Both the position numbers and the translations under genes were made by a program. A stretch of 64,000 nucleotides of DNA from the IMG/VR virus record IMGVR_UViG_3300049846_002551, positions 1 to 64,000 of that record; one strand, given 5' to 3'. Under the pieces are notes generated by a model that was not told the origin of the DNA, did not search any database, and saw only the letters and a program-made list of their open reading frames with translations. Positions 1 through 18,680 of the stretch are shown here, piece by piece (within the stretch, counting starts at the first letter, position 1; each line of letters opens with the position of its first letter). The DNA comes from a virus.

Positions 1-268
1 TTCTAGAGTTCTTGAAGTACTGTGCATCTCGTTGAGCACGTCTATACCCTTCTTCAGCAATTGCTCGTAGTCTTTTTTGCGTGGCAAGCTCTTGTTTGAG
101 TTTAGTGATTTCAGATGCAGAAGCAATGGTGCTTACACCGCAGTATGGACACCACCATTCCAATCCCTTAATCGACGCCTTTTCGTAAAAATCCTGAGCA
201 AGCGCATAGGGTGCGTGGCAACTATAACAATTGATGATGGTGAAGACATAAGTGTGTTCAAAAGTCAT
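1..268 (-). CDS. Zn-finger/coiled-coil phage protein, runs off the window start
   Basis: Not in the ORF track. Manual translation from ATG 268: MTFEHTYVFTIINCYSCHAPYALAQDFYEKASIKGLEWWCPYCGVSTIASASEITKLKQELATQKRLR..., open to position 1; CxxC...CxxC followed by a coiled coil; AGGA upstream. Confidence 0.7.
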   Translation of the reverse strand, partial: MTFEHTYVFTIINCYSCHAPYALAQDFYEKASIKGLEWWCPYCGVSTIASASEITKLKQELATQKRLRAIAEEGYRRAQRDAQYFKNSR

Positions 269-384
269 GAGCGTTCCTATCTTGTTTATACCGTAGTGGA
301 AATTTGGGCTTGCTGGGAGCGGGAGAGGCGTACTTAATTCGTTTATAAACGCGAGTAGCGCGAAAGAACACGGAAAAAGCTGTC

Positions 385-606
385 CTAGGACCTGCGGCTA
401 TTCGAAACACGGTGCCATGCCCGATTCCCGCTGAGAATTTTTTCGATTTCTTTTTGCACATCGATACCCTCTTTGTGGAGTTCGCGTAATGCGAAAAGTC
501 GTTGTGTTTCTTTAACGCGAAAGCGCGGAGACGAGTAGGGACCACCAAGCGGAGCCGAGTCTGGAGCTATAGGTTTATTGTTGGGGATTTCGTAGATTCG
601 AGACAT
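385..606 (-). CDS. hypothetical protein
   Basis: ORF 385..735; likely start ATG 606 (MSRIYEIP...), which removes the overlap with the upstream gene. Confidence 0.5.
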   Translation of the reverse strand: MSRIYEIPNNKPIAPDSAPLGGPYSSPRFRVKETQRLFALRELHKEGIDVQKEIEKILSGNRAWHRVSNSRRS

Positions 607-622
607 AGGATTAGCCAGTGTA

Positions 623-847
623 TCAATTAGGTTTCTCGGTTTGTGGTTGCTCTTTCGGTGCATGATTATCATCGGCTCGTTGTTTGTTGACTTCTGGATT
701 GTAAAATGGGTCGTAAGTTGGCCCATAAGCGGCATATCCGGATTCTTGACAATGCGTAAACAACAACATTATGATTACGAGTCCTATCACGATTATAGTA
801 GTGATGTAACGAATGGTTTGTTGCTCTGAGTAATGTGGATCGTTCAT
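623..847 (-). CDS. small single-TM membrane protein
   Basis: Hydrophobic segment ITTIIVIGLVIIMLLF; packed in the minus-strand run of small genes. Confidence 0.55.
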   Translation of the reverse strand: MNDPHYSEQQTIRYITTIIVIGLVIIMLLFTHCQESGYAAYGPTYDPFYNPEVNKQRADDNHAPKEQPQTEKPN

Positions 848-855
848 GATAGTTC

Positions 856-1242
856 TTATTTAGAGGTTTCTTCAGGAGTGGGTCGATTAAACCACGCGAA
901 AATGTAATCACGTAAATCTTGGTAATCAATGTTTCCCGCTTTTAAACTAACGGTTAGAACAAAATGTCCACCTTCTAAATGACAAAGAAAGCTTCGTCCC
1001 CAGACACCAGTTGGATTTGAAATCATTGCGCGGAAAACATCTTCGTTGCCACTCCATCCGCCTGTAGATATTAAGTAGATTCCGTCGCGCTCGACGTAAC
1101 TACTGTAATCGGGATTCATGGCTTCAATACAGAATAGGAGCCAATCTTTTTCTTCACCGATTGGTACTTCCCAATTGCGTATGTAATCGAGAGTTTCCTG
1201 TGTTGGGTACTCGCCGTTTTCGTCGAACTCTGGTTTAATCAT
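856..1242 (-). CDS. phage hypothetical protein
   Basis: 128 aa; STGGWSGNE motif that I recall from phage hypothetical proteins; TGGTAGAAT -10 box upstream at about 1264-1272. Confidence 0.7.
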   Translation of the reverse strand: MIKPEFDENGEYPTQETLDYIRNWEVPIGEEKDWLLFCIEAMNPDYSSYVERDGIYLISTGGWSGNEDVFRAMISNPTGVWGRSFLCHLEGGHFVLTVSLKAGNIDYQDLRDYIFAWFNRPTPEETSK

Positions 1243-1305
1243 TGCGTTTTACTGAACAACTGAATTCTACCACGGATTGAAAAATTAAACGGGTTTGAGG
1301 GGGAC

Positions 1306-1336
1306 TTGACAAAACTACTCCTGAGTTAGGTATACT
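1306..1336 (+). promoter_or_regulatory. sigma70-type early promoter (TTGACA-N19-TATACT)
   Basis: TTGACA 1306-1311, GG-TATACT 1331-1336; shares TTGACAAAACTACT with the promoter at 5787. Confidence 0.7.
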
Positions 1337-1353
1337 GGTTTTCGAGGTGAAGA

Positions 1354-1710
1354 ATGAAAACGGTTATTAAACACGGAGTTCACTATCAGATTCTACACGA
1401 AACGGTTTTTAAGCCGTATGCAATTACAAAGCCTGTCGCACCGAACAGCATTCTTTGGAAACGTACCGGAAAAATGGATTCCAAAGCGCGACAAGTATTT
1501 CAAAAAGGACGTGGAATTATAGGAACTGTCACCAGTTCACATAGCTATGATAAGTGGTTGCGAAAACCGCGTGAGCAAGAGCTAGCTCAAGTTGAAGAAG
1601 CGTATCAAGAATTCAAACTTGCGGATAAAAAGTATCGAGAAGCCCTAAAGCGTTGTTTCGAAAAAGCAAACAAATTAAGCTGGGCTGAAATTAAAAGGGA
1701 GACACATTAG
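1354..1710 (+). CDS. hypothetical protein (probably early)
   Basis: 118 aa; strong SD GAGGTGA; first gene after the TTGACA promoter. Confidence 0.75.
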   Translation: MKTVIKHGVHYQILHETVFKPYAITKPVAPNSILWKRTGKMDSKARQVFQKGRGIIGTVTSSHSYDKWLRKPREQELAQVEEAYQEFKLADKKYREALKRCFEKANKLSWAEIKRETH

Positions 1711-2135
1711 TGATTCGTTGGAACATCAACGATGGCGGAAGAGCCGAAGCAGGTTATCGCGGAAAAACTGGAGATTGTGTTGTAAGGGCAATTACAATTG
1801 CAACTGGGATTCCTTACAAAGAAGTTTACAACGCCTTAGCTATTGAACAAGCAACGGTGCGTGGACGCAAGACTTGTAGACGTGGAGTAGCTCGACCAGT
1901 TTATGATCGATTCCTAAAAGACTTAGGGTGGACCTGGGTACCGTGTATGACAATCGGAAGTGGATGCAGAGTGCATTTGCGTGAAGATGAACTTCCAAAC
2001 GGAACGATTATATGCAGACTTTCTAAGCACCTTGTAGCCGTTATCGATGGGATTCTGCAAGACACCTATGACTGTTCGAGAATGGGGACACGGTGCGTGT
2101 ACGGCTACTATGAAAAGCGAGAGGGCTATCAATAG
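1710..2135 (+). CDS. conserved phage hypothetical protein (DCVVRAI motif)
   Basis: NDGGR..AG..G..GDCVVRAI.IA...HLVAVIDG...DT.DC motif pattern; abuts the previous gene. Confidence 0.8.
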   Translation: MIRWNINDGGRAEAGYRGKTGDCVVRAITIATGIPYKEVYNALAIEQATVRGRKTCRRGVARPVYDRFLKDLGWTWVPCMTIGSGCRVHLREDELPNGTIICRLSKHLVAVIDGILQDTYDCSRMGTRCVYGYYEKREGYQ

Positions 2136-2297
2136 AAGGGAGTGTACTAATAGCCCCGTTTAAGGATTTACGACCAGCACAGTCTCACTTGTGTTGCCCT
2201 TAAACTCGATTCCTGCAAGTGCGACGGTTTGCACGTCGGTAACAGTTCACTATGCGGATTTTACCGGAACGGTCCGAGAGCGAGTACAATTCGCATC

Positions 2298-2618
2298 ATG
2301 GCAGAAGTGAATGCGGCAATTATGGCTCCGCTCCAGAGTTACAATGATTGGAACATTGCGTTAACAACCGTTTCTCCGGACAATCGAGCAATATTCGATG
2401 ATGAACTCGCTTCTGGCACAACCTATCAACTTCGGGCTGTAAACCTGCTCGATAAACATACCGTGAAAACTTCTCAAACGTATTCCAGTTTACGGGCGTG
2501 TGTTTCCGAACTCGATGTGTGGCTGACTGCTGTGTTAGCGGTGAAGTTTGGGACACCGTTTGCGCGAATTATAATTAGCTCAAACGTAAACGCATACCAT
2601 CCGCAATCTATCGCCTAG
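2298..2618 (+). CDS. hypothetical protein (leaderless start)
   Basis: In frame with ORF 2229..2618; TACAAT (2285-2290) lies 7 nt before ATG 2298. Confidence 0.65.
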   Translation: MAEVNAAIMAPLQSYNDWNIALTTVSPDNRAIFDDELASGTTYQLRAVNLLDKHTVKTSQTYSSLRACVSELDVWLTAVLAVKFGTPFARIIISSNVNAYHPQSIA

Positions 2619-2639
2619 TTTCCGGTATAACCAGACTGT

Positions 2640-2936
2640 ATGGATATTCTGGTTACAAAACCGACTGACCTAGAAGGTTACGTATTAATCCCCAATGTGA
2701 CGACTGAAAAAGTTCACAGTTACTTCCGCGAAACGGAGCCTGGGGTTTGGAAAAACATTTCTGCTTTAACGTTTGATACGCTGGAGCGCAACGCATCGAT
2801 TGATTTATTGTTAATTGAGATCAAACGTGCGAAAAACGATATGGATGCTGTTATTATTCGGTTAGGAAGCCCATTGGAAGCCTTACAAGATTTTGGCTTA
2901 CGCTTTGATGCTCACTCGATTTTCTTTAATCTTTAA
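2640..2936 (+). CDS. hypothetical protein
   Basis: 98 aa; GGTATAAC lies 8 nt before the ATG. Confidence 0.65.
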   Translation: MDILVTKPTDLEGYVLIPNVTTEKVHSYFRETEPGVWKNISALTFDTLERNASIDLLLIEIKRAKNDMDAVIIRLGSPLEALQDFGLRFDAHSIFFNL

Positions 2937-2977
2937 AGAAAAGAAGGTGGCAAGCATCCATACTCACCACCTTTGTT
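2937..2977. terminator. bidirectional intrinsic terminator
   Basis: AAGGTGG...CCACCTT stem (2944-2973), A-rich on the left and T-rich on the right, between convergent units. Confidence 0.6.
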
Positions 2978-3026
2978 GTGTAGCCGCCTTCGGGGGAGGT
3001 GAAATCCGGCTACACGTAACACGGAC
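2938..3026 (-). ncRNA. putative anti-Shine-Dalgarno small RNA 1
   Basis: TGGTATACT -10 at 3041..3033; 9-bp stem 2978-2986/3007-3015 with a loop reading GAUUUCACCUCCCCCGAAGG on the minus strand; terminator follows; no ORF. Confidence 0.6.
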
Positions 3027-3042
3027 GATAAAAGTATACCAT

Positions 3043-3639
3043 TTAAGCGGCGTCTGAGAGCAAATTTTCTTTTTCTTCGTCTAAACAGGTTCGTAATTTG
3101 GTTTGAATGTCGCTTATGATTCCTGCAACTCGTGATTCGCTAAGTTGGAGTTTTTTAGCGCAAGTTTTATGATCCCAGCCTATGAGTTTGAGTTCAAGAA
3201 CCTGTTGTTGCCTGATAGTACATCGATGCCATAGCTTTTCGATTAGTAAATCTGTTTCAATGATAGATTGTGCGTTGTGCGCTAAGAAGTTTGATTTCTG
3301 GATTGAAGAGGACGAGACTTCAAGTAGATACGTAAAATCGTGTCCAATCATATTGTCCGGTAATCGTGGATACGTTCGAGTGCTACCGTGCGATTTTGAA
3401 TAACGGCGAAGGCATTGAACCATTTCTTTCTTAATCATGTAGTAAACATATGTGATTAGTTTTGCCCCAACTGAAGGATCGTATTGCTGGAGCGCACTAA
3501 AAACCGCGATTCTTCCTTCTTGAATCAAATCTTCTATAGTGATTGAATAAGGTGTCGCAATACGAATATATTTTTTCGCTAGTGTGTGGATTAGCGGTAA
3601 CCATTTTTCAATCTCTTTCTCGACGTTCGCTTCTATCAT
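3043..3639 (-). CDS. RNA polymerase sigma-70 family factor (regions 2 and 4)
   Basis: EDLIQEGRIAVFSALQQYDPSVGAKLITYVYYMIK (region 2) and a C-terminal HTH. Start taken as ATG 3639, 7 nt after TGTATAAT; the track's 3699 start lies inside the upstream hairpin. Confidence 0.85.
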   Translation of the reverse strand: MIEANVEKEIEKWLPLIHTLAKKYIRIATPYSITIEDLIQEGRIAVFSALQQYDPSVGAKLITYVYYMIKKEMVQCLRRYSKSHGSTRTYPRLPDNMIGHDFTYLLEVSSSSIQKSNFLAHNAQSIIETDLLIEKLWHRCTIRQQQVLELKLIGWDHKTCAKKLQLSESRVAGIISDIQTKLRTCLDEEKENLLSDAA

Positions 3640-3657
3640 ATTGCAGATTATACAGTT

Positions 3658-3727
3658 AAAAAAAGTCCCGTATGGTGCAAAAGGAGGTGAAATCACCATA
3701 CGGGCATCGTAATGGTTCTGACTTACG
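3658..3727 (-). ncRNA. putative anti-Shine-Dalgarno small RNA 2
   Basis: GGTACAAT -10 at 3741..3734; perfect 11-bp stem 3667-3677/3694-3704 with 16-nt loop AUUUCACCUCCUUUUG, followed by U7 (A7 at 3658-3664). Confidence 0.65.
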
Positions 3728-3761
3728 TTTAAAATTGTACCTGGCCTTTTTTCTATAAATG

Positions 3762-3797
3762 AAAACCCTCCGCTCGAAAATCAAGCGGAGGGTTTTT
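3762..3797. terminator. intrinsic terminator
   Basis: AAAACCCTCCGCT...AGCGGAGGGTTTT 13-bp inverted repeat just downstream of 3816..4241(-). Confidence 0.8.
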
Positions 3798-3815
3798 AGA
3801 ACGCAGAGTTGAATT

Positions 3816-4241
3816 TTAAGCGGGTTGGAAAGCCAACTCAAGATGATCGAGTCCACCAGCAACCAGTTCAACTTCAACTGAGGCTTCATAGGTCACATCG
3901 TTAATCGTGACTGAGCCTTTCAAAATACCAGTAGCTCCCGCTTCACCAGGATTAAAGGTGTCCATTGCATCGTTGACTTCACCAAAGTTCCCATTAGTGG
4001 GTTCCGCAGTAATAGTCAAGTCTGATGCGCTGAGGTCAATTTCGTTGCCTTCAGCATCGGCCCCTTTAGCTGTGATTTTAATGGGCTGGGTTGCGTCAAG
4101 TTGTAATGACATGATTAGTCTGTATCTCCTAGTTTGATTTATGATGCCTCGTGCCCACCAATAGCCCATTACTATTCCGGTAATCAATGCCCAAGACATT
4201 AAAATCGAAAAAGAAACTATCGGTGATACTTCGGCGAACAC
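3816..4241 (-). CDS. Ig-like domain protein with N-terminal TM; possible second start at ATG 4112
   Basis: GTG 4241 is 6 nt after TGGTATATT; internal AGGAGA 12 nt before ATG 4112 (MSLQLDATQPIKITAKGADAEGN..., beta-rich Ig-like). Confidence 0.7.
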   Translation of the reverse strand: MFAEVSPIVSFSILMSWALITGIVMGYWWARGIINQTRRYRLIMSLQLDATQPIKITAKGADAEGNEIDLSASDLTITAEPTNGNFGEVNDAMDTFNPGEAGATGILKGSVTINDVTYEASVEVELVAGGLDHLELAFQPA

Positions 4242-4261
4242 TACTTTAATATACCAGGTTT

Positions 4262-4918
4262 TCAGTACTGATTGTACTTTGGAGGCTGTTTGTACGCCAC
4301 CACTTTAGCGCGAATAGAGTTGTGCGGAATAACGAATTGACCGTAAGATGGGTAGAAAGGCGTTTTTAACTCTCGTGCTTTTTGGATGAGTGTTTCAAGC
4401 TTTGGTGCAAGGTCATGGATGGATCGCAATTTATTAATAGGAAATCCCCAACGTTTTCCCAACTTTGAATCAAGGGGTTTTAAATCAGGAATCATTTCAT
4501 CGGTATACGCCCAACCAATAAGGTCTACAATGTAATCGGATGGAGTTCTACATGCGATTAAGAAAATACGATCTACTTTTCCATTTCGAAACGGGAAACG
4601 GCTTTTTGGCGCGAAAAATATTTCCGAGTTTATTGAAGCCGTTCGTCGCATACTTTTAACCATGAGGGGAACTACCGTCTCGTCGCGTGTAAAGTCTGCT
4701 CGGTAATACCGTTTATTTTTTGGGTCTTTTGTTTGTGAGTAGTTTAAATTAAACGCTTTTGCAACTGCCAATTGTGCTAATACTGAAACAACATGCAGTT
4801 GAGCCGCAGACTCAATCTGTGCCATTTTGTTTTCAAGTTTGTATTTACGAATGTTGATGCGCTGATTAGCGAGTTTATAGGCTTGGTCTACTTCTTCGTT
4901 TGTAAGAACGATTCGCAT
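4262..4918 (-). CDS. hypothetical protein, possibly a degenerate PD-(D/E)xK-like fold
   Basis: 218 aa; AQLAVAK...ADF...MVKS...LIGW pattern resembles a phage nuclease-like family with the acidic residues altered. Confidence 0.6.
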   Translation of the reverse strand: MRIVLTNEEVDQAYKLANQRINIRKYKLENKMAQIESAAQLHVVSVLAQLAVAKAFNLNYSQTKDPKNKRYYRADFTRDETVVPLMVKSMRRTASINSEIFFAPKSRFPFRNGKVDRIFLIACRTPSDYIVDLIGWAYTDEMIPDLKPLDSKLGKRWGFPINKLRSIHDLAPKLETLIQKARELKTPFYPSYGQFVIPHNSIRAKVVAYKQPPKYNQY

Positions 4919-5145
4919 TACTTGTTAACAAGCTGTCCACCAGAAAGCGGGGATTCAACGAATTTAACATGAAACGGGTGCGCTTCGTGGTAAATAGTTT
5001 TTCGTAATTCTGCATGCAATTTGTTTTGATGAACGACACGAATATGTAGCCCTCTGGTTTGCCTCATTTCGACGGAAGTAATTCCGTGCGATCCTACGTA
5101 TCGAACCGCCAGTTCTTGAGCCATTTCGGTTATATTTTTTGGCAT
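4918..5145 (-). CDS. hypothetical protein
   Basis: 75 aa; its stop overlaps the next start (TAATG). Confidence 0.65.
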   Translation of the reverse strand: MPKNITEMAQELAVRYVGSHGITSVEMRQTRGLHIRVVHQNKLHAELRKTIYHEAHPFHVKFVESPLSGGQLVNK

Positions 5146-5162
5146 GAGTTTGAATTTTTAAA

Positions 5163-5756
5163 CTAAATTTTTTCAGCTTGCACGTTTCCTAGTGGACGTA
5201 GAATGGGCCGATTACTGAGGTCTAGGTCTTGATTTGGATTAAATATTGTTCCAGCAATTCGAATTGTGTCTGGCGTTTCTTTCCACGGTCTAGCTTGTAA
5301 TTCGATGTTTGTTTCTTTGAACATTTGACGAGTAGCTTCGAGCCCTTCTACCCAAGTTTGGCTATTAAGCATATGCTTTGTGAATTCACGCATAGCGTTT
5401 TCATCAAACACGACACGTTTAATTCCTGTTTGTACAATTCCACGAGCGCAGTCCGCGCATGGCATAAGAATAGTGTAAAGAGTGCACCCGTCTACAGCAA
5501 CACCGTTTCTAATTGCGTTGTCGATGGCGTTCCGTTCTGCATGCGCCATCCAATGATATTTATTAGGACGATTCCAGCGCGGATCGTCATCCTCAAATTC
5601 GGCGATGCCTCTAGGCCACCCGTTATAACCTGTGGATCGAATTGTTTGATCTGGAGCTACAATAACTGCTCCAAGTTGTGTGGATAAATCTGGAGAACGT
5701 TGTGCGATTAAGTAAGCAAGACGGATGTATAAATCATCCCATTCAATTCGGTGCAT
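5163..5756 (-). CDS. dCMP deaminase
   Basis: STGYNG, HAERNAI and PCADCA zinc motifs. Confidence 0.95.
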   Translation of the reverse strand: MHRIEWDDLYIRLAYLIAQRSPDLSTQLGAVIVAPDQTIRSTGYNGWPRGIAEFEDDDPRWNRPNKYHWMAHAERNAIDNAIRNGVAVDGCTLYTILMPCADCARGIVQTGIKRVVFDENAMREFTKHMLNSQTWVEGLEATRQMFKETNIELQARPWKETPDTIRIAGTIFNPNQDLDLSNRPILRPLGNVQAEKI

Positions 5757-5786
5757 GTTTCTTATTCTACCATTTCTAATCGTACA

Positions 5787-5817
5787 TTGACAAAACTACT
5801 GTATATTGTGGTACACT
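5787..5817 (+). promoter_or_regulatory. sigma70-type early promoter (TTGACA-N19-TACACT)
   Basis: TTGACA 5787-5792, TGG-TACACT 5812-5817; first 14 bp identical to the promoter at 1306. Confidence 0.7.
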
Positions 5818-5838
5818 CAGACAATCACGGAGGACGCA

Positions 5839-6537
5839 ATGGGGAGAAGCAGGGAATTCACGGCATTCACTAATAACGACTTAGCAGAAGCTTATGCACG
5901 AACGCGCAATCAACAATACAAATCGGAACTGGTTTTTCGATACGACGCACTTGTTATTTCTTGTTGTAAAAAATATCGAGAACGACGCGATTATGAAGAT
6001 ATTGTACAAGAGGGGAGGTTAGCGTTTTTACAGGCTCTTGAAACCTATAATCCGGATGTTGCAAAATTTAGTACGTTGATGGTGTACTATGTTAAAGGAA
6101 AAATCAGTCATTACATTCGAGACAAATCGGAGATAATTCGAACCCCATCTTGGATTATGGAGCACTACCAAAAAGAAGCTGTAGCTTCTGCCGCTTTGGA
6201 AGCTACTTTTAATCGCAAACCCACACTAAACGAACTAGCTTATGCGCTGGGAATGACACCAAAACGACTGTACGACATACATACTAAGAGTCCAGGTTGC
6301 CGCGAATGTGAAGAACTAGACCTGGCCTCTAATTTCACCGAGTACACTGAAGATTCCTTGACGCCTTCAGAACTAAGTGCTAATATTTTTGGGGGTAAAA
6401 CGCATCTAGATGATCATTTATTTTTAGATCAAGAAGAAAAATTCTACCTTAAAACAGCATCGGTATCAGAGTTAATGCGGACTTTTAAAATAGGGATTTT
6501 TGATGCCAAGAAGCTGAAAAAGCTAGTTAACTCGTGA
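5839..6537 (+). CDS. RNA polymerase sigma-70 family factor (SigB/SigF-like regions 2 and 3)
   Basis: EDIVQEGRLAFLQALETYNP..AKFSTL..YYVKGKISHYIRDKS.IIRTP and RKPTLNELAYALG; GGAGG before ATG 5839. Confidence 0.88.
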   Translation: MGRSREFTAFTNNDLAEAYARTRNQQYKSELVFRYDALVISCCKKYRERRDYEDIVQEGRLAFLQALETYNPDVAKFSTLMVYYVKGKISHYIRDKSEIIRTPSWIMEHYQKEAVASAALEATFNRKPTLNELAYALGMTPKRLYDIHTKSPGCRECEELDLASNFTEYTEDSLTPSELSANIFGGKTHLDDHLFLDQEEKFYLKTASVSELMRTFKIGIFDAKKLKKLVNS

Positions 6538-6631
6538 CACAATTGTAGAATGGTGTTCCAGATTTTTTCATAAGAAGAGTTTGTCAGCCATCATTCCTCG
6601 GTCTACTTGCTAGACAGGAGATATAACTCAT

Positions 6632-7042
6632 ATGAGCCAAATGACTGATGCCTTTGAGAACTGGGTGCTAAACCAAGCGTTCGGAAAAACGCCAGGGTTC
6701 ACACTTGGAACTCAATTCTGGATTGCCCTTTGGTTGGGTGACCCGACAGATACAGGTACAGGAGCGACTGAAAACGCTTCCGGTACTTCATATGGTGCTT
6801 ATGCCCGTGTGACGCTTCCAGCGTTAATGGGCACTGCAACATCGGGTTACATCAACAACATTACTGATATTGTGTTCCCTCAAGCGATTGCAAACTGGGG
6901 CAACATCACACATATTGCAGTAATGTCGTCCGCGACAGGTGGAACGATGATTGTGTATGCGTCATTAGCGGCAACTGTTACGATTAACAACAACGAACAG
7001 TTCCGAATTAACGCATCCAACCTGACGTTCCAGGCTCTGTAG
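6632..7042 (+). CDS. small phage virion/tail-fibre-associated protein
   Basis: MSQMTDAFENWVLN...WIALWLGDPTDTG...YARV...VFPQA..NWG.ITH.A..S..TGG pattern typical of this virion family; SD AGGAGA. Confidence 0.8.
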   Translation: MSQMTDAFENWVLNQAFGKTPGFTLGTQFWIALWLGDPTDTGTGATENASGTSYGAYARVTLPALMGTATSGYINNITDIVFPQAIANWGNITHIAVMSSATGGTMIVYASLAATVTINNNEQFRINASNLTFQAL

Positions 7043-7072
7043 ACTTTTAAAGCTTACATTCACCCTGTCCGT

Positions 7073-7106
7073 AAAAGCCACCTCGGTATACTGGGGTGGC
7101 TTTTTT
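7073..7106 (+). terminator. intrinsic terminator
   Basis: AAAAGCCACCTCGG-tata-CTGGGGTGGCTTTTTT. Confidence 0.85.
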
Positions 7107-7152
7107 GATTTGGTAATTCAATCAGAATTTATGTGAAAATTTTCGTTGCGTC

Positions 7153-8283
7153 ATGCCGTATCTTCGTCCAAATAGCGATGTTTCAAATCCCGGTGGTTGG
7201 GTTGACCAGGCGGGAGGAACTACTAATCTCTATTCAACGATTGATGAAGTAACAGCAGATGACACGGATTACAATAAAGGTCCTAACTGTCCAACTAACG
7301 CGGCGATGACAGTTGGACTACAGTCCGGAACTGATCCTGAATCTTCTAGTGGTCATGTGGTTCATTTTAGAGCGAGACATCCGGCTGGTTCAGTACCTGC
7401 AACGACACTTACAGTATCACTTTTACAAAATGGAACATTAATCAGTTCTTTAGCTCAATTACTTCCGATTAGCAACACGTGGGTGGATTATTCTTTCACT
7501 CTTACTGGGTCTGAAGCAGATTCGATTACAGATTACTCACAGCTTCAACTGAAATTTAATTCAACTAGAAGTACGGCCTGTTTGGGAAGTCCGCATTCTG
7601 AAGTTTCTTACGCTGATTTATTGCTACCTGTGCCGCCAGGAAAAGTATTCGCTACAATAGCGATCACGTCTACTGTTGCGGGAGTTTCAGTTAACAACGC
7701 GACTGCGGTTAGCATTGTTATAATTAGTTCTGTTGACACTCCAACGGTTCGTGTACATACTACTCATCTTGTTGGGTTGTTTGGTCTTAATAATCCACTA
7801 ATTAGAATTTCGGCTCAAGATGTTTTAGCCCAAGGTTACACACCTGTTGCAGGATTTGGGCAAGTTGTTATTAGTGCATCAATTGTAGAAAATTCGTTAA
7901 AGGGTCAACCAAGCTTTAGTCAAGTAGTTATTAGCTCACCTTTAATCATCGAGAATTCACTTAAAGGTCAACCTAATTTTTCACAGGTTACTATTAACTC
8001 TTTAACGGCACAACCGATTGTTGTTAAGACGGCGAAAATACCTAGCACTACTATAATTGATGGATTAACAATTATCCACGCGCTTGCTCCGTTAAGAGTT
8101 GTCGGAAGCAAAATGGTGGTTAATCCTGTCCATACCGAAGTCGCGGTTGGGGTGCTATTGATCACATCTTTGGTGCAAGCCAACGGGTATACGAATCCAT
8201 TAACCTTTGGGCAATTGATCATCATTGGTTCCGTGATCGGAAGCCAAGTTAGCAGTATTCGCAGAGTGTTTTTGATTACTTAG
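7153..8283 (+). CDS. putative virion fibre protein (beta-sandwich head plus 21-aa repeats)
   Basis: N-terminal domain homologous to the C-terminus of 41356..42945; C-terminal half paralogous to 10023..12326. Confidence 0.7.
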   Translation: MPYLRPNSDVSNPGGWVDQAGGTTNLYSTIDEVTADDTDYNKGPNCPTNAAMTVGLQSGTDPESSSGHVVHFRARHPAGSVPATTLTVSLLQNGTLISSLAQLLPISNTWVDYSFTLTGSEADSITDYSQLQLKFNSTRSTACLGSPHSEVSYADLLLPVPPGKVFATIAITSTVAGVSVNNATAVSIVIISSVDTPTVRVHTTHLVGLFGLNNPLIRISAQDVLAQGYTPVAGFGQVVISASIVENSLKGQPSFSQVVISSPLIIENSLKGQPNFSQVTINSLTAQPIVVKTAKIPSTTIIDGLTIIHALAPLRVVGSKMVVNPVHTEVAVGVLLITSLVQANGYTNPLTFGQLIIIGSVIGSQVSSIRRVFLIT

Positions 8284-10022: not shown

Positions 10023-12326
10023 ATGAGTGTTAACGGCGACGTACTGTTACTTGAGTCATCTTTAGTAGATGGTTATCTGCTGGAAGATGGTTCAGGCGTC
10101 TTGCTGTTAGATGGTGTTGACGTTGGTATTGCCACCCAATCTACAGTAGTCATCAGTGCCGTTGACACTTCCACAGTTCGTGTACGCACTACTCTTCTTG
10201 TTGGGTTGTTTGGTCTAGGCAATCCGGTAGTTAGAATTTCGGCTCAAGACTTAATTACAAGTGTCGTAAAGGCTACTTCAAGCTTTAGTCAAGTTGTTAT
10301 TAGTGCACCTTTAATCATCGAGAACTCATTTAAAGGTCAACCAAGCTTTAGTCAAGTAGTTATAACTACTCCGTTAATTGTAGAAAACTCTCTTAAAGGT
10401 CAGCCAAGCTTTAGTCAAGTAGTTATTAGTACGCTAAACGCGCAATCGGTTACAGTTAAAACTGCAAAAATTCCGAAGACTACTGTAACCGATGGTACGA
10501 TTCTTATTCAATCATTAGGCCCGTTACAAGTTAACGCTTTAATTATTGATGAGAATTCCCTTAAAGGTCAACCCAGCTTTAGTCAAGTTGTTATTAGTTC
10601 ACCTTTAATCATCGAGAACTCACTTAAAGGTCAACCCAGCTTTAGTCAAGTTGTTATTAGTTCACCTTTAATCATCGAGAACTCACTTAAAGGTCAACCC
10701 AGCTTTAGTCAAGTTGTTATTAGCGCATTTTTGGTTTTAGTTAACAGTGTGCACACAGCCGTTGCTGTTGGTGCCGTGGTAATTACAGCTACTGTAAATG
10801 CGGAAGCGTTTGTTCCATTAGTGATTGTCGATGGATCACCTGTTTTAAGCGTATTACAGATTCAATCTTTAAATGTAATTGCAAGCACCATTAAAGGTCA
10901 ACCAAGCTTTAGTCAAGTTGTTATTAGTGCGCCTGTAGTTGTTGAAAATTCGTTAAAGGGTCAACCCAGCTTTAGTCAAGTTGTTATTAGTTCACCTTTA
11001 ATCATCGAGAATTCACTTAAAGGTCAACCTAGCTTTAACCAGATTGTTATTAGCTCACCTTTAATCATCGAGAATTCACTTAAAGGTCAACCTAGCTTTA
11101 ACCAGATTGTTATTAGTGCACCTGTAATTGTTGAAAATGCATTTAAAGGTCAACCAAGCTTTAGTCAAGTAGTTATTAGTGCACTTTCGATTCAATCAGT
11201 CACATCAAAACTTGATTTTGGTTTTGGGCAACTTGTAATTGCATCTCTGTTTGTAACTCCAGTCATTGCAAAAACTGCGTCTAGCACCAATCAAGTTGTT
11301 ATTAGTGCACCTGTAATTGTTGAAAATGCATTTAAAGGTCAACCAAGCTTTAACCAGATTGCTATTACTGCTCAAATAGTTACCGAGACTACTGAAAAGA
11401 CTGCACAAGTTACTGCTGTTTTAACTTTCAATTCGATTGAAATTTTAAGCAACCCAATTCGATGTGCCGTTGCAAACGGTGCAGTATATATACTACAAAC
11501 AGAAATCATTGATGCTTCTTATAAAGGTGTAGGAAGTTTTTCTACGCTTAAAATAAGTAGTTTTACCTCTGCTACTAAAGCGGGAAATGTCGAAGTTTAC
11601 GCTCAAATCCAGGTGCATTCCACGGTTACTGCCGCATCCTTAAAAGGACAACCTGCATTTGGAGTGATAGTAGTTTCCGGAAGTACTGGCAATACTCCAG
11701 TCAGTAATATCGGACAAGCTTTTGGTGTTGTATATATACAAACCCTTGCAATTCAAGATATTCAAATAGTTAAAACAGTTTCCAGTTTAGGTACTGTTGC
11801 GATTACTGCGAATGCTCATACAATTCGAGTACGGTTGGCTCAAGCCTTTGCCTCTTTGGTCATAGGTGCAAACGTCTTTTATGGGGAAGGCTATGCGGAA
11901 GCTGTTGCTGTTGGTAATCTTCAAGTTTTAGGAGTAGTGCAACCTACTCGAATCTTATCTTCTAATTCGTTTACAAACGTTCAGATTCGTAGTGAGGTTC
12001 AAGTATCGCTTCTTCATATGGCGCATGCTTTTTCTAGCTTAAGAATAACCGGGTTTGGACGATCTGAAGCGGGAGCCGGACATCTAGAGATCAACCTAAT
12101 TCAGCTACAAGCTTTTATTTCGGGAGGGCGTACTTATCGGATTCCACCTCCAATCTATGTTAAACGTATTAGCACAGATGCTATGGACTTACGACATAAT
12201 CCTACTAATGATTCACCTGTACTAAAGTCAACGGAAATGAGTAATCTTGAAAGTGCTACTCGTAATCCTATTTCAAATGATTTGGACGGAACCTACGTGC
12301 CAGATGATCTAGCTTTAGTCGATTAA
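10023..12326 (+). CDS. Ser/Val/Ile-rich repeat virion protein
   Basis: About 11-12 copies of a KGQPSF-containing 21-aa unit; LLLE...LLEDGSG.LLLD N-terminus. Confidence 0.75.
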   Translation: MSVNGDVLLLESSLVDGYLLEDGSGVLLLDGVDVGIATQSTVVISAVDTSTVRVRTTLLVGLFGLGNPVVRISAQDLITSVVKATSSFSQVVISAPLIIENSFKGQPSFSQVVITTPLIVENSLKGQPSFSQVVISTLNAQSVTVKTAKIPKTTVTDGTILIQSLGPLQVNALIIDENSLKGQPSFSQVVISSPLIIENSLKGQPSFSQVVISSPLIIENSLKGQPSFSQVVISAFLVLVNSVHTAVAVGAVVITATVNAEAFVPLVIVDGSPVLSVLQIQSLNVIASTIKGQPSFSQVVISAPVVVENSLKGQPSFSQVVISSPLIIENSLKGQPSFNQIVISSPLIIENSLKGQPSFNQIVISAPVIVENAFKGQPSFSQVVISALSIQSVTSKLDFGFGQLVIASLFVTPVIAKTASSTNQVVISAPVIVENAFKGQPSFNQIAITAQIVTETTEKTAQVTAVLTFNSIEILSNPIRCAVANGAVYILQTEIIDASYKGVGSFSTLKISSFTSATKAGNVEVYAQIQVHSTVTAASLKGQPAFGVIVVSGSTGNTPVSNIGQAFGVVYIQTLAIQDIQIVKTVSSLGTVAITANAHTIRVRLAQAFASLVIGANVFYGEGYAEAVAVGNLQVLGVVQPTRILSSNSFTNVQIRSEVQVSLLHMAHAFSSLRITGFGRSEAGAGHLEINLIQLQAFISGGRTYRIPPPIYVKRISTDAMDLRHNPTNDSPVLKSTEMSNLESATRNPISNDLDGTYVPDDLALVD
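10280..11365 (+). repeat. 63-bp coding repeat array (ENSLKGQPSFSQVVISSPLII)
   Basis: Exact tandem copies at 10560-10622 and 10623-10685, partial copy 10686-10723; further near-identical copies around them, and two at about 7885-7995. Confidence 0.95.
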
Positions 12327-12384
12327 CAGGTGCCTTTTGCGTAAAACTACCACAGATTCAAAAATGGATTAAAATGGAACCATA

Positions 12385-17792: not shown

Positions 17793-17862
17793 TGGTATGA
17801 TTCTTTTGTAAAGGGGGGTAGGGGGGTTAGAGTTTAACTAAATTGCCTTCGGCAATTTAGTT
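17793..17862 (+). other. -10 box, G6-TA-G6 tract and 12-bp hairpin in an AT-rich divergent intergenic region
   Basis: TGGTATGAT 17793-17801; GGGGGGTAGGGGGG 17813-17826; AACTAAATTGCC/GGCAATTTAGTT 17836-17862. Confidence 0.6.
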
Positions 17863-17900
17863 TATAAGGTTCAGTTTTTCATTACGGTAACATTATCCGT

Positions 17901-18680
17901 ATGTACGCTTCTGAACAGTTCAACGTCATCCGGACTTTTTTAACAACACAAGCACCTGCGGAACGCTTAGTGCTCTCGGTTAAATTGTATTATGCGTACT
18001 TTTTAACGATGGACGAGTTGCACATGCTTTACGATTCTTATCAAAATGAATTTCGGACTGAAGCGGCGTTGCAAGGTTACACCGATGCGTTTGCTTGGTT
18101 TAAGAAATATAGTGCATACCCAATTGAGACGTTCGAGGACTTGTTTAATAAGCCGCGTCCGTTTATTTGGAAGTATGAGGATTTACAGAACGAGTTCAAG
18201 TTGATCGTGGATTTGCTCCCTTCTTTGTGGGTTACTTCAGATGTGGCAGATTATTCGAATGCTATGAAACTAGGGGATGAACCTCTGTTTGCAATCGAGT
18301 GGTTGGAAGAACGCGGCTTCATTTCGGTGGATGGACTAATCCTGTCTAGGACGATTCAGCCTGTGGTTATTAGTGAGCAGTCGAGCGAAAAGGTCGTGCT
18401 TGCAATGCCTAATATTACAGATAGTGAGTTTGCATCCGAGTTTGAAATGATTCCAGCTTTAGGTGGAGGGTGTGCGTTTAAAGCGGTTTACGGTCCTGCC
18501 CAGCTTAATATTAACTTTGCGGATAGTGTTGGCATCGATGACGTGGATAGTGTGATGTTATGTATCGGAAAGTTAGAAGAGAAGGACTCCCAATGGTCGG
18601 TTGTCGAGCGTCCAAGTCTTGATTATTACAAGATCAAAAGAATTCTATCGAACGGTATTACAGTTCCATTTGTAAATTAA
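17901..18680 (+). CDS. hypothetical protein (leaderless start)
   Basis: 259 aa; GGTAACAT lies 7 nt before the ATG. Confidence 0.75.
   Translation: MYASEQFNVIRTFLTTQAPAERLVLSVKLYYAYFLTMDELHMLYDSYQNEFRTEAALQGYTDAFAWFKKYSAYPIETFEDLFNKPRPFIWKYEDLQNEFKLIVDLLPSLWVTSDVADYSNAMKLGDEPLFAIEWLEERGFISVDGLILSRTIQPVVISEQSSEKVVLAMPNITDSEFASEFEMIPALGGGCAFKAVYGPAQLNINFADSVGIDDVDSVMLCIGKLEEKDSQWSVVERPSLDYYKIKRILSNGITVPFVN

Follow-up and report, generated by a model that had tools for sequence, protein, structure and literature searches.

We describe two short intergenic units on the minus strand of an uncultured tailed phage, one on either side of a gene for a small sigma factor, which carry the same C-rich 12-mer, GAUUUCACCUCC, in the loops of two hairpins whose stems are unrelated. 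The reading we favor, to which we assign a probability of about 0.4, is that these units encode two small RNAs that occlude ribosome-binding sites, in the manner of SprX, RsaE, LhrC and the cuckoo RNAs. The anatomy of the units, the enrichment of their promoter motif, their predicted folds and the accessibility of their loops were obtained by computation; from these we infer the production of the RNAs, their action in trans and their targets. RNAs of this kind are already known, and the context, represented by a single genome, is new.

The DNA analyzed (the window, 64,000 nucleotides) takes up positions 1 to 64,000 of a virus record that is 93,936 nt long, has 42% GC, is approximately 81% complete and represents a tailed phage with genes for portal, major head and tail proteins, DnaB helicase, thymidylate synthase and dCMP deaminase. 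The gene lying between the two units encodes a small sigma-70-family factor of 198 aa (Sigma70_r2, E=8e-13; phrog_351, E=3e-19), with its stop codon at 3045..3043 on the minus strand. Judged from sequence features, its coding sequence most likely begins at 3639 rather than at the longest-ORF start, 3699: an N-terminally extended product from 3699 is disfavored, as that frame would cross the hairpin of unit 2 and lacks a Shine-Dalgarno (SD) sequence, while position 3639 fits the leaderless geometry exactly. The alignment length against distant homologues is compatible with either start. Read along the minus strand, the locus comprises a terminator (3796..3762), unit 2, the sigma promoter and coding sequence (3639..3043), unit 1, and a second terminator (2973..2934). 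Coordinates of these and related features are collected in Table 1.

Table 1. Coordinates and attributes of features at the sigma locus and of the strong promoter class of the phage.
Feature	Position	Strand	Attributes
Intrinsic terminator common to unit 1 and sigma mRNA	2934..2973	-	13-pair hairpin 2973..2944 and U-rich tail
Unit 1 hairpin	2978-2986/3007-3015	-	9-bp perfect stem, 20-nt loop; 12-mer at 3006..2995
Unit 1 extended -10 box, TGGTATACT (TGG-TATACT)	3041..3033	-	Overlaps sigma stop codon 3045..3043
Sigma-70-family CDS, apparently leaderless	3043..3639	-	TGTATAAT at 3654..3647, 7 nt to ATG at 3639; without SD
Unit 2 intrinsic terminator	3658..3704	-	11-bp hairpin, then U7 at 3664..3658; ends 3 nt before sigma promoter box
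Unit 2 hairpin	3667-3677/3694-3704	-	11-bp perfect stem, 16-nt open loop; 12-mer at 3694..3683
Unit 2 small 5' hairpin	3708..3727	-	5 bp, includes UUACG
Unit 2 -10 box, GGTACAAT	3741..3734	-	Predicted transcription start ~3727
Ordinary terminator of gene 3816..4241	3762..3796	-	13-bp stem, 9-nt loop
Strong promoters, TTGACAAAACTACT + 8-9 nt + GG-TAnnnT	window 1300-1336, 5781-5817; genome 80973, 83857, 84311, 86776, 87683, 91689, 92691		

The next gene upstream of unit 2 (3816-4241, minus strand) is separated from that unit by its own terminator. An ESM Atlas entry covers its product from residue 44 onward, and the model resembles Ig-like/Big_2 folds, which suggests a protein of the virion-decoration type rather than a regulator; the idea that it might be an RNA chaperone was rejected on the same grounds. 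Its candidate starts are a leaderless GTG at 4241 or an internal start.

On the plus strand, the complement of the 12-mer occupies positions 2995-3006 and 3683-3694, and no further exact copy occurs in the window or in the whole 93,936-nt record; when up to one mismatch is allowed, four matches are found against 0.27 expected. A copy of the plus-strand word with one mismatch, GGAGGTGGAATC, lies on the minus strand at 12140-12151 within a fiber-like gene (10023-12326), and a GG-TAGTTT box at 12351 on the same strand could give an antisense RNA over it, probably by chance. Both hairpins are intergenic, and in each the 12-mer adjoins the 5' arm of the stem in the minus-strand reading. Repeat and alignment analysis bore out the original prediction of an identical loop word on unrelated perfect stems of 9 and 11 bp; apart from this word and the -10 boxes, unit 1 cannot be aligned with unit 2. 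Nor is the word conserved as coding sequence, since its reading frame differs from one unit to the other. A further proposed resemblance, a UUACG in both 5' arms, fared less well: the pentamer does lie within the small 5' hairpin of unit 2, but its presence in both units is at chance level, and we dropped it as a common feature.

Folding of both units, which had been proposed as a check, gave z-scores of -4.4 (unit 1) and -4.2 (unit 2) for the whole predicted RNAs against shuffled controls, and of -2.8 and -4.7, respectively, for the hairpins alone. In unit 1 the segment ACCUCCCCC forms the apical loop, with each base predicted at least 0.92 unpaired, and the UUUC portion of the 12-mer is predicted to pair weakly within the loop; in unit 2 the whole 12-mer is predicted open, the probability that CACCUCC is entirely unpaired being 0.84. 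The C-rich motif is thus predicted to be single-stranded in both loops, with its CCUCC core open.

How much of this could arise without any use being made of the loop word was considered with two simple alternatives in mind. By the first, the structures are plain terminator or stabilizer hairpins, and the identity of their loops is a functionless duplication relic or a chance repeat. The components taken singly are indeed not rare: by our estimate, chance alone would supply about eight perfect 9-bp stems with loops of up to 24 nt in 94 kb, so that the 9-bp stem by itself is not remarkable, and a window this long should hold some two to three 12-mer repeats no more than 700 bp apart. The coincidence required is nevertheless of intergenic location, same-register placement in the loop, promoter and terminator on the same strand and anti-SD content, and we estimate the chance of a common 12-mer in two loops so sized at approximately 3e-6. 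Recent duplication is unlikely given that the stems have nothing in common, and loops of 16-20 nt, which weaken terminators, would be unlikely to last without use. We regard this explanation as unlikely.

The second places the function in the DNA, the two 12-bp direct repeats being operator or recombination sites around a sigma cassette and the hairpins incidental terminators. It draws on the exactness of the repeats and on their position, 688 bp apart around one gene with its own promoter. Against it, the flanks joined across the repeats yield no hairpin or inverted ends, there is no recombinase nearby, and the same register in two large loops and the promoter and terminator signals on the minus strand speak for RNA. 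The absence of inverted ends at the joined flanks is unlike a target-site duplication, and that version of the idea was discarded for want of support from the flanks; the explanation as a whole appears highly unlikely.

The original prediction had assigned each unit its own -10 box, and both are present as members of a class that is enriched in the genome. We scored as a box a GG followed by a hexamer matching TATAAT at five or more of six positions (GG-TAnnnT extended -10). The genome contains 34 of these, against approximately 26 in shuffled genomes, and intergenic DNA, which makes up roughly 5% of the genome, accounts for about 21 of them, a more than 10-fold enrichment. Most of the intergenic boxes precede genes, often 6-8 nt before an ATG that lacks an SD; correspondingly, leaderless genes of the phage start 6-8 nt past the box, nearly always with ATG. 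This enrichment makes it very likely that the boxes of units 1 and 2 are real promoter elements. The octamer of the unit 1 box, from which transcription is predicted to start at about 3026, recurs in the strong early promoter at 1329, and that of unit 2 in an early promoter at genome position 80996. A good -35 element was found at neither unit, and the conserved early-promoter spacer is likewise absent from both. A stronger promoter class, in which TTGACAAAACTACT stands 8-9 nt upstream of the GG-TAnnnT box, feeds both SD-led and leaderless first genes; the two units lack this upstream part. A search for the early-promoter pattern yielded six unrelated contigs. A design of the same type, with the -10 element beside the ORF, is documented in Deinococcus-Thermus, where an ORF-adjacent TANNNT motif drives leaderless mRNAs and GGAG marks other genes (PMC12340547).

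Four boxes are orphans: besides those of units 1 and 2, these are the boxes at 17794 and, within a terminator loop, at 7085. The latter belongs to a bidirectional-looking terminator at 7073-7104 in the window, with a 10-bp stem and a 12-nt loop that includes GGTATACT, the same octamer as in the unit 1 box and the 1329 promoter. The box at 17794 (TGG-TATGAT, plus strand, without an ORF) opens a third orphan unit, 17794-17885, whose layout is like that of unit 2 plus sigma: within it lie a G6-TA-G6 tract and a perfect 12-bp stem capped by a UUC loop, and the next element is the box of a leaderless gene at 17901. For the CU-rich loop of unit 2, the G-rich tract ranks with the better partners (-19.1 kcal/mol), which may be an effect of composition.

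A terminator for each unit, as had been predicted, is present: hairpin 2 runs directly into U7, and hairpin 1, which itself has no U-run, is succeeded by a separate hairpin and its U-rich tail. The latter terminator also faces a convergent plus-strand operon. At both units the terminator U-runs are confined to the minus strand, and the 16- and 20-nt loops are atypically large for intrinsic terminators. In silico, then, each unit combines its own promoter and an intrinsic terminator with the lack of any plausible ORF, and the anatomy of promoter box, exposed loop and terminator agrees with the claim of two separate non-coding units on the minus strand flanking the sigma gene.

The non-coding assignment was weighed against small peptides, encoded either by a 29-codon GTG ORF in unit 1 (3022..2933, minus strand) or on the plus strand behind the GGAGGTG complementary to the loop word, in the style of a type I toxin-antitoxin pair, an alternative that the original prediction had itself named. 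The GTG lies 10 nt past the unit 1 -10 box, but leaderless genes of this phage begin closer to the box and nearly always with ATG; moreover, the GTG ORF crosses two hairpins, and the frame of the 12-mer differs in unit 2. On the plus strand no ATG, GTG or TTG occurs 3-12 nt downstream of either GGAGGTG, with only ATC at SD spacing, which upholds the claim that these are not ribosome-binding sites and tells equally against the toxin-antitoxin arrangement. Peptides are in our view exceedingly improbable.

A more substantial alternative follows from the layout of the sigma transcript. No terminator precedes 2973 in the sigma mRNA, whose 3' UTR should therefore include the unit 1 loop. Both hairpins might accordingly be cis elements of that transcript, hairpin 2 an insulating or regulated leader terminator and hairpin 1 a 3'-UTR element; the loop would then bind a single trans-acting factor that controls sigma expression (e.g., an antiterminator, an RNase or an RNA-binding regulator), and no pairing to SD sequences would be involved. 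Several observations are in accord with this: the two copies bracket one regulatory gene and the word occurs nowhere else in 94 kb; hairpin 1, between the sigma stop codon and the sole terminator, is part of the sigma mRNA; hairpin 2 and its U7 stop just short of the sigma -10 box; unit 2 could simply be a second terminator or a leader; and a fixed loop on varying stems is also typical of hairpins recognized by proteins. On the other side, each hairpin has a promoter box of the enriched class, which would be superfluous for a pure UTR element, no RNA-binding protein was found nearby (the neighbors are the Ig-like protein and proteins without family match), and the identity of the loop word with the exact anti-SD core would here be a coincidence. 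We consider this explanation rather unlikely, though the strongest of the alternatives; were the loops to bind a protein, they would represent dedicated control of the phage sigma factor.

The content of the loop word was compared with the 3' tail of bacterial 16S rRNA, for which the canonical sequence is GAUCACCUCC; the form used for comparison was GAUCACCUCCUU(U). Against this canonical tail, which may not be that of the host, the loop has an extra UU between GAU and CACCUCC, and in unit 2 UUUU comes next. GAU and CACCUCC are in accord with the proposed 16S-like character of the loop, and the UU insertion departs from the canonical tail. A pattern scan in helix-45 context over 596 Gb of genomes found no 16S gene ending in the loop variant, none of the 120 matches listed lying within a 16S gene.

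This likeness admits a bolder alternative, in which the loop GAU..CACCUCC(UUU) is a decoy that mimics the 16S tail and titrates a tail-binding factor, or SD sequences globally, shutting off SD-dependent host translation and sparing the leaderless genes of the phage. The resemblance does extend beyond CCUCC, to the preceding GAU and, in unit 2, the following UUUU, and the first cistrons of most transcription units of the phage are leaderless, in keeping with the -10-beside-ORF design known from Deinococcus-Thermus (PMC12340547). Yet the inserted UU has no counterpart in the canonical tail, no genome with such a 16S end appeared among the 120 matches listed, the phage itself has SD-led genes (e.g., the DnaB helicase gene, the 901-aa ORF at 75505), and very high RNA levels would be needed to titrate all host SDs. 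We judge a decoy decidedly unlikely; if it existed, the sigma mRNA itself would bear one 16S-tail mimic in its 3' UTR.

Masking of individual ribosome-binding sites is favored as the function, this being the best-precedented role of an exposed C-rich word, and we infer that the loops could occlude SD sequences and thereby repress strong-SD mRNAs. Candidate targets were sought in the phage itself. Full GGAGG is scarce in its intergenic DNA, with eight sites, which resolve into five true ribosome-binding sites, the two unit loops and one terminator stem. With the loop, the GAGGTG-type SDs of the genes at 1354, 66385, 80717, 75505 and 83908 can form 7-9 bp (-12 to -15 kcal/mol), and these sites would match the 16S tail equally well. 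The gene at 1354, singled out earlier as a target, does have GAGGTGAA before its ATG, but its 9-bp pairing is no better than that of a generic SD. No extended SD tag peculiar to the early genes was found. Among the TIRs of the phage none matches the loop beyond a generic SD, apart from one weak lead for unit 1 (p~0.01); the best TIR for unit 2 does not surpass those obtained with shuffled loops. In that lead, approximately 20 nt of the unit 1 loop are complementary to the ribosome-binding site and start of an FkbM-family methyltransferase gene (genome 89888-89909; L194:689-710), at -26.2 kcal/mol, a value equaled by two of 150 shuffled loops (p~0.013); the gene has a GTG start at genome 89909 and overlaps the end of a 76-aa ORF. 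Separately, the 91-aa gene at 80717 has an anti-SD-like sequence in cis, GAUCACCUC, some 20 nt ahead of its GGAGGUG SD (genome 80684-80716); the two could pair, in a fold no better than shuffles (z -0.8).

Searches for relatives revealed the phage to be an orphan, without relatives in any collection interrogated. No match was obtained by blastn in 50,697 phage records, nor with the sigma factor and portal protein in viral contigs; the sigma factor and its 218-aa neighbor, compared with 5.8 billion proteins, retrieved only the record itself and sigma factors of about 30% identity. In metagenome contigs the sigma factor identified eight distant loci, with 33-41% identity over region 2; none of these eight has a near-gene hairpin with the full CCTCC/GGAGG core in its loop, one loop (in L201) having CTCC only. 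Further copies, which the original prediction had proposed to seek in Rfam and in related phage contigs, did not materialize as a family. No Rfam covariance model, including those for ar14/cuckoo, RsaE, LhrC (rli) and c4, reached its gathering score in the window, and at E<=10 nothing relevant was found over positions 1-8000. In viral contigs, UUACG combined with the 12-mer gave 44 matches, almost all of them coding or complements of ordinary ribosome-binding sites, and the 16-mer and 17-mer around the 12-mer likewise gave no family, retrieving coding sequence, complements of ribosome-binding sites, or terminators whose stem contains the word.

Among the viral-contig matches only one, L035, shows the 12-mer as a hairpin loop. 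This is an unrelated viral contig of 5.8 kb and 57% GC, in which the loop AUUUCACCUCC is carried on a 16-bp perfect hairpin (L035:5700-5760, minus strand) and shares 18 nt with unit 1. The hairpin immediately follows another one of at least 10 bp, and 2 nt separate it from the ATG, lacking an SD, of a 620-aa ORF. As a single case it is a suggestive parallel only.

The RNA-based masking of ribosome-binding sites that we favor may be outlined as follows. Two short minus-strand transcripts, of about 90 nt (~3026 to 2934) and about 70 nt (~3727 to 3658), would be made on either side of the leaderless sigma gene, each running from an extended -10 promoter of the phage-wide type to an intrinsic terminator. 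Unit 1 would be a small RNA of the 3'-UTR type, with its promoter over the sigma stop codon and a terminator in common with the sigma mRNA. Each RNA would display the same C-rich 12-mer, with its anti-Shine-Dalgarno core CCUCC, unpaired in a large loop, and the loop would pair antisense with G-rich ribosome-binding sites and block the loading of ribosomes. Targets would come from the SD-led minority of phage genes, from host mRNAs, or from both, and the many leaderless first cistrons of the phage would be immune. Should the RNAs be real and act at ribosome-binding sites, the phage would join a leaderless gene design with anti-SD RNAs of its own, two features not yet linked, providing a simple viral means to tell its own from other messages at the step of initiation; an uncultured phage of lytic type would also enter the short list of those with a validated small RNA that masks ribosome-binding sites.

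Known systems place these predictions in perspective. The c4 antisense RNA of phages P1 and P7 (Rfam RF01695) is a phage RNA with the role proposed for the units, in that it masks the region of a phage mRNA where ribosomes bind. It arises, however, by processing of a longer transcript and acts on a single specific mRNA by means of two dedicated segments, and it has no Rfam match to the units. Small RNAs derived from 3' UTRs with an internal promoter, such as MicL and DapZ, are enterobacterial and carry Hfq-dependent seeds at the 5' end. Unit 1 resembles these in that its promoter lies where the upstream ORF ends and its terminator is that of the mRNA, whereas its putative seed lies in a loop. 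The layout of the units also resembles that of RsaE/RoxS and LhrC1-5, which are multicopy or conserved RNAs with their own promoter and intrinsic terminator, whose C- or CU-rich single-stranded sites occlude SDs; those of LhrC are redundant CU-rich sites that mask ribosome-binding sites (PMC4132741). They differ as chromosomal small RNAs of Bacillota with defined regulons, and their covariance models do not match the phage units.

The original prediction had recognized no described phage system of this kind, a statement that proves too strong in view of SprX (PMC4005690) and the cuckoo RNAs (PMC4615179). In the cuckoo RNAs (RSs0680/CcsR, ar14/NfeR) a fixed anti-SD-like loop word is carried on freely varying stems (PMC4615179), a pattern that recurs in the phage units. 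Each alphaproteobacterial transcript, however, has two to four adjacent hairpins with the word CCUCCUCCC, while the phage has one hairpin per predicted transcript, 700 nt apart, with another word, and no Rfam match to the cuckoo RNAs at E<=10. SprX (RsaOR), present in one to three copies in converting phages of Staphylococcus aureus, uses an accessible C-rich hairpin loop to pair with a ribosome-binding site and block ribosome loading (PMC4005690), and thus has in common with the phage units a phage-encoded C-rich loop, with no relation in sequence or in Rfam. SprX is a single multi-hairpin RNA of a temperate phage with a known host and proven targets; here, two predicted units surround a sigma gene and present a longer, 16S-like word in a leaderless genome.
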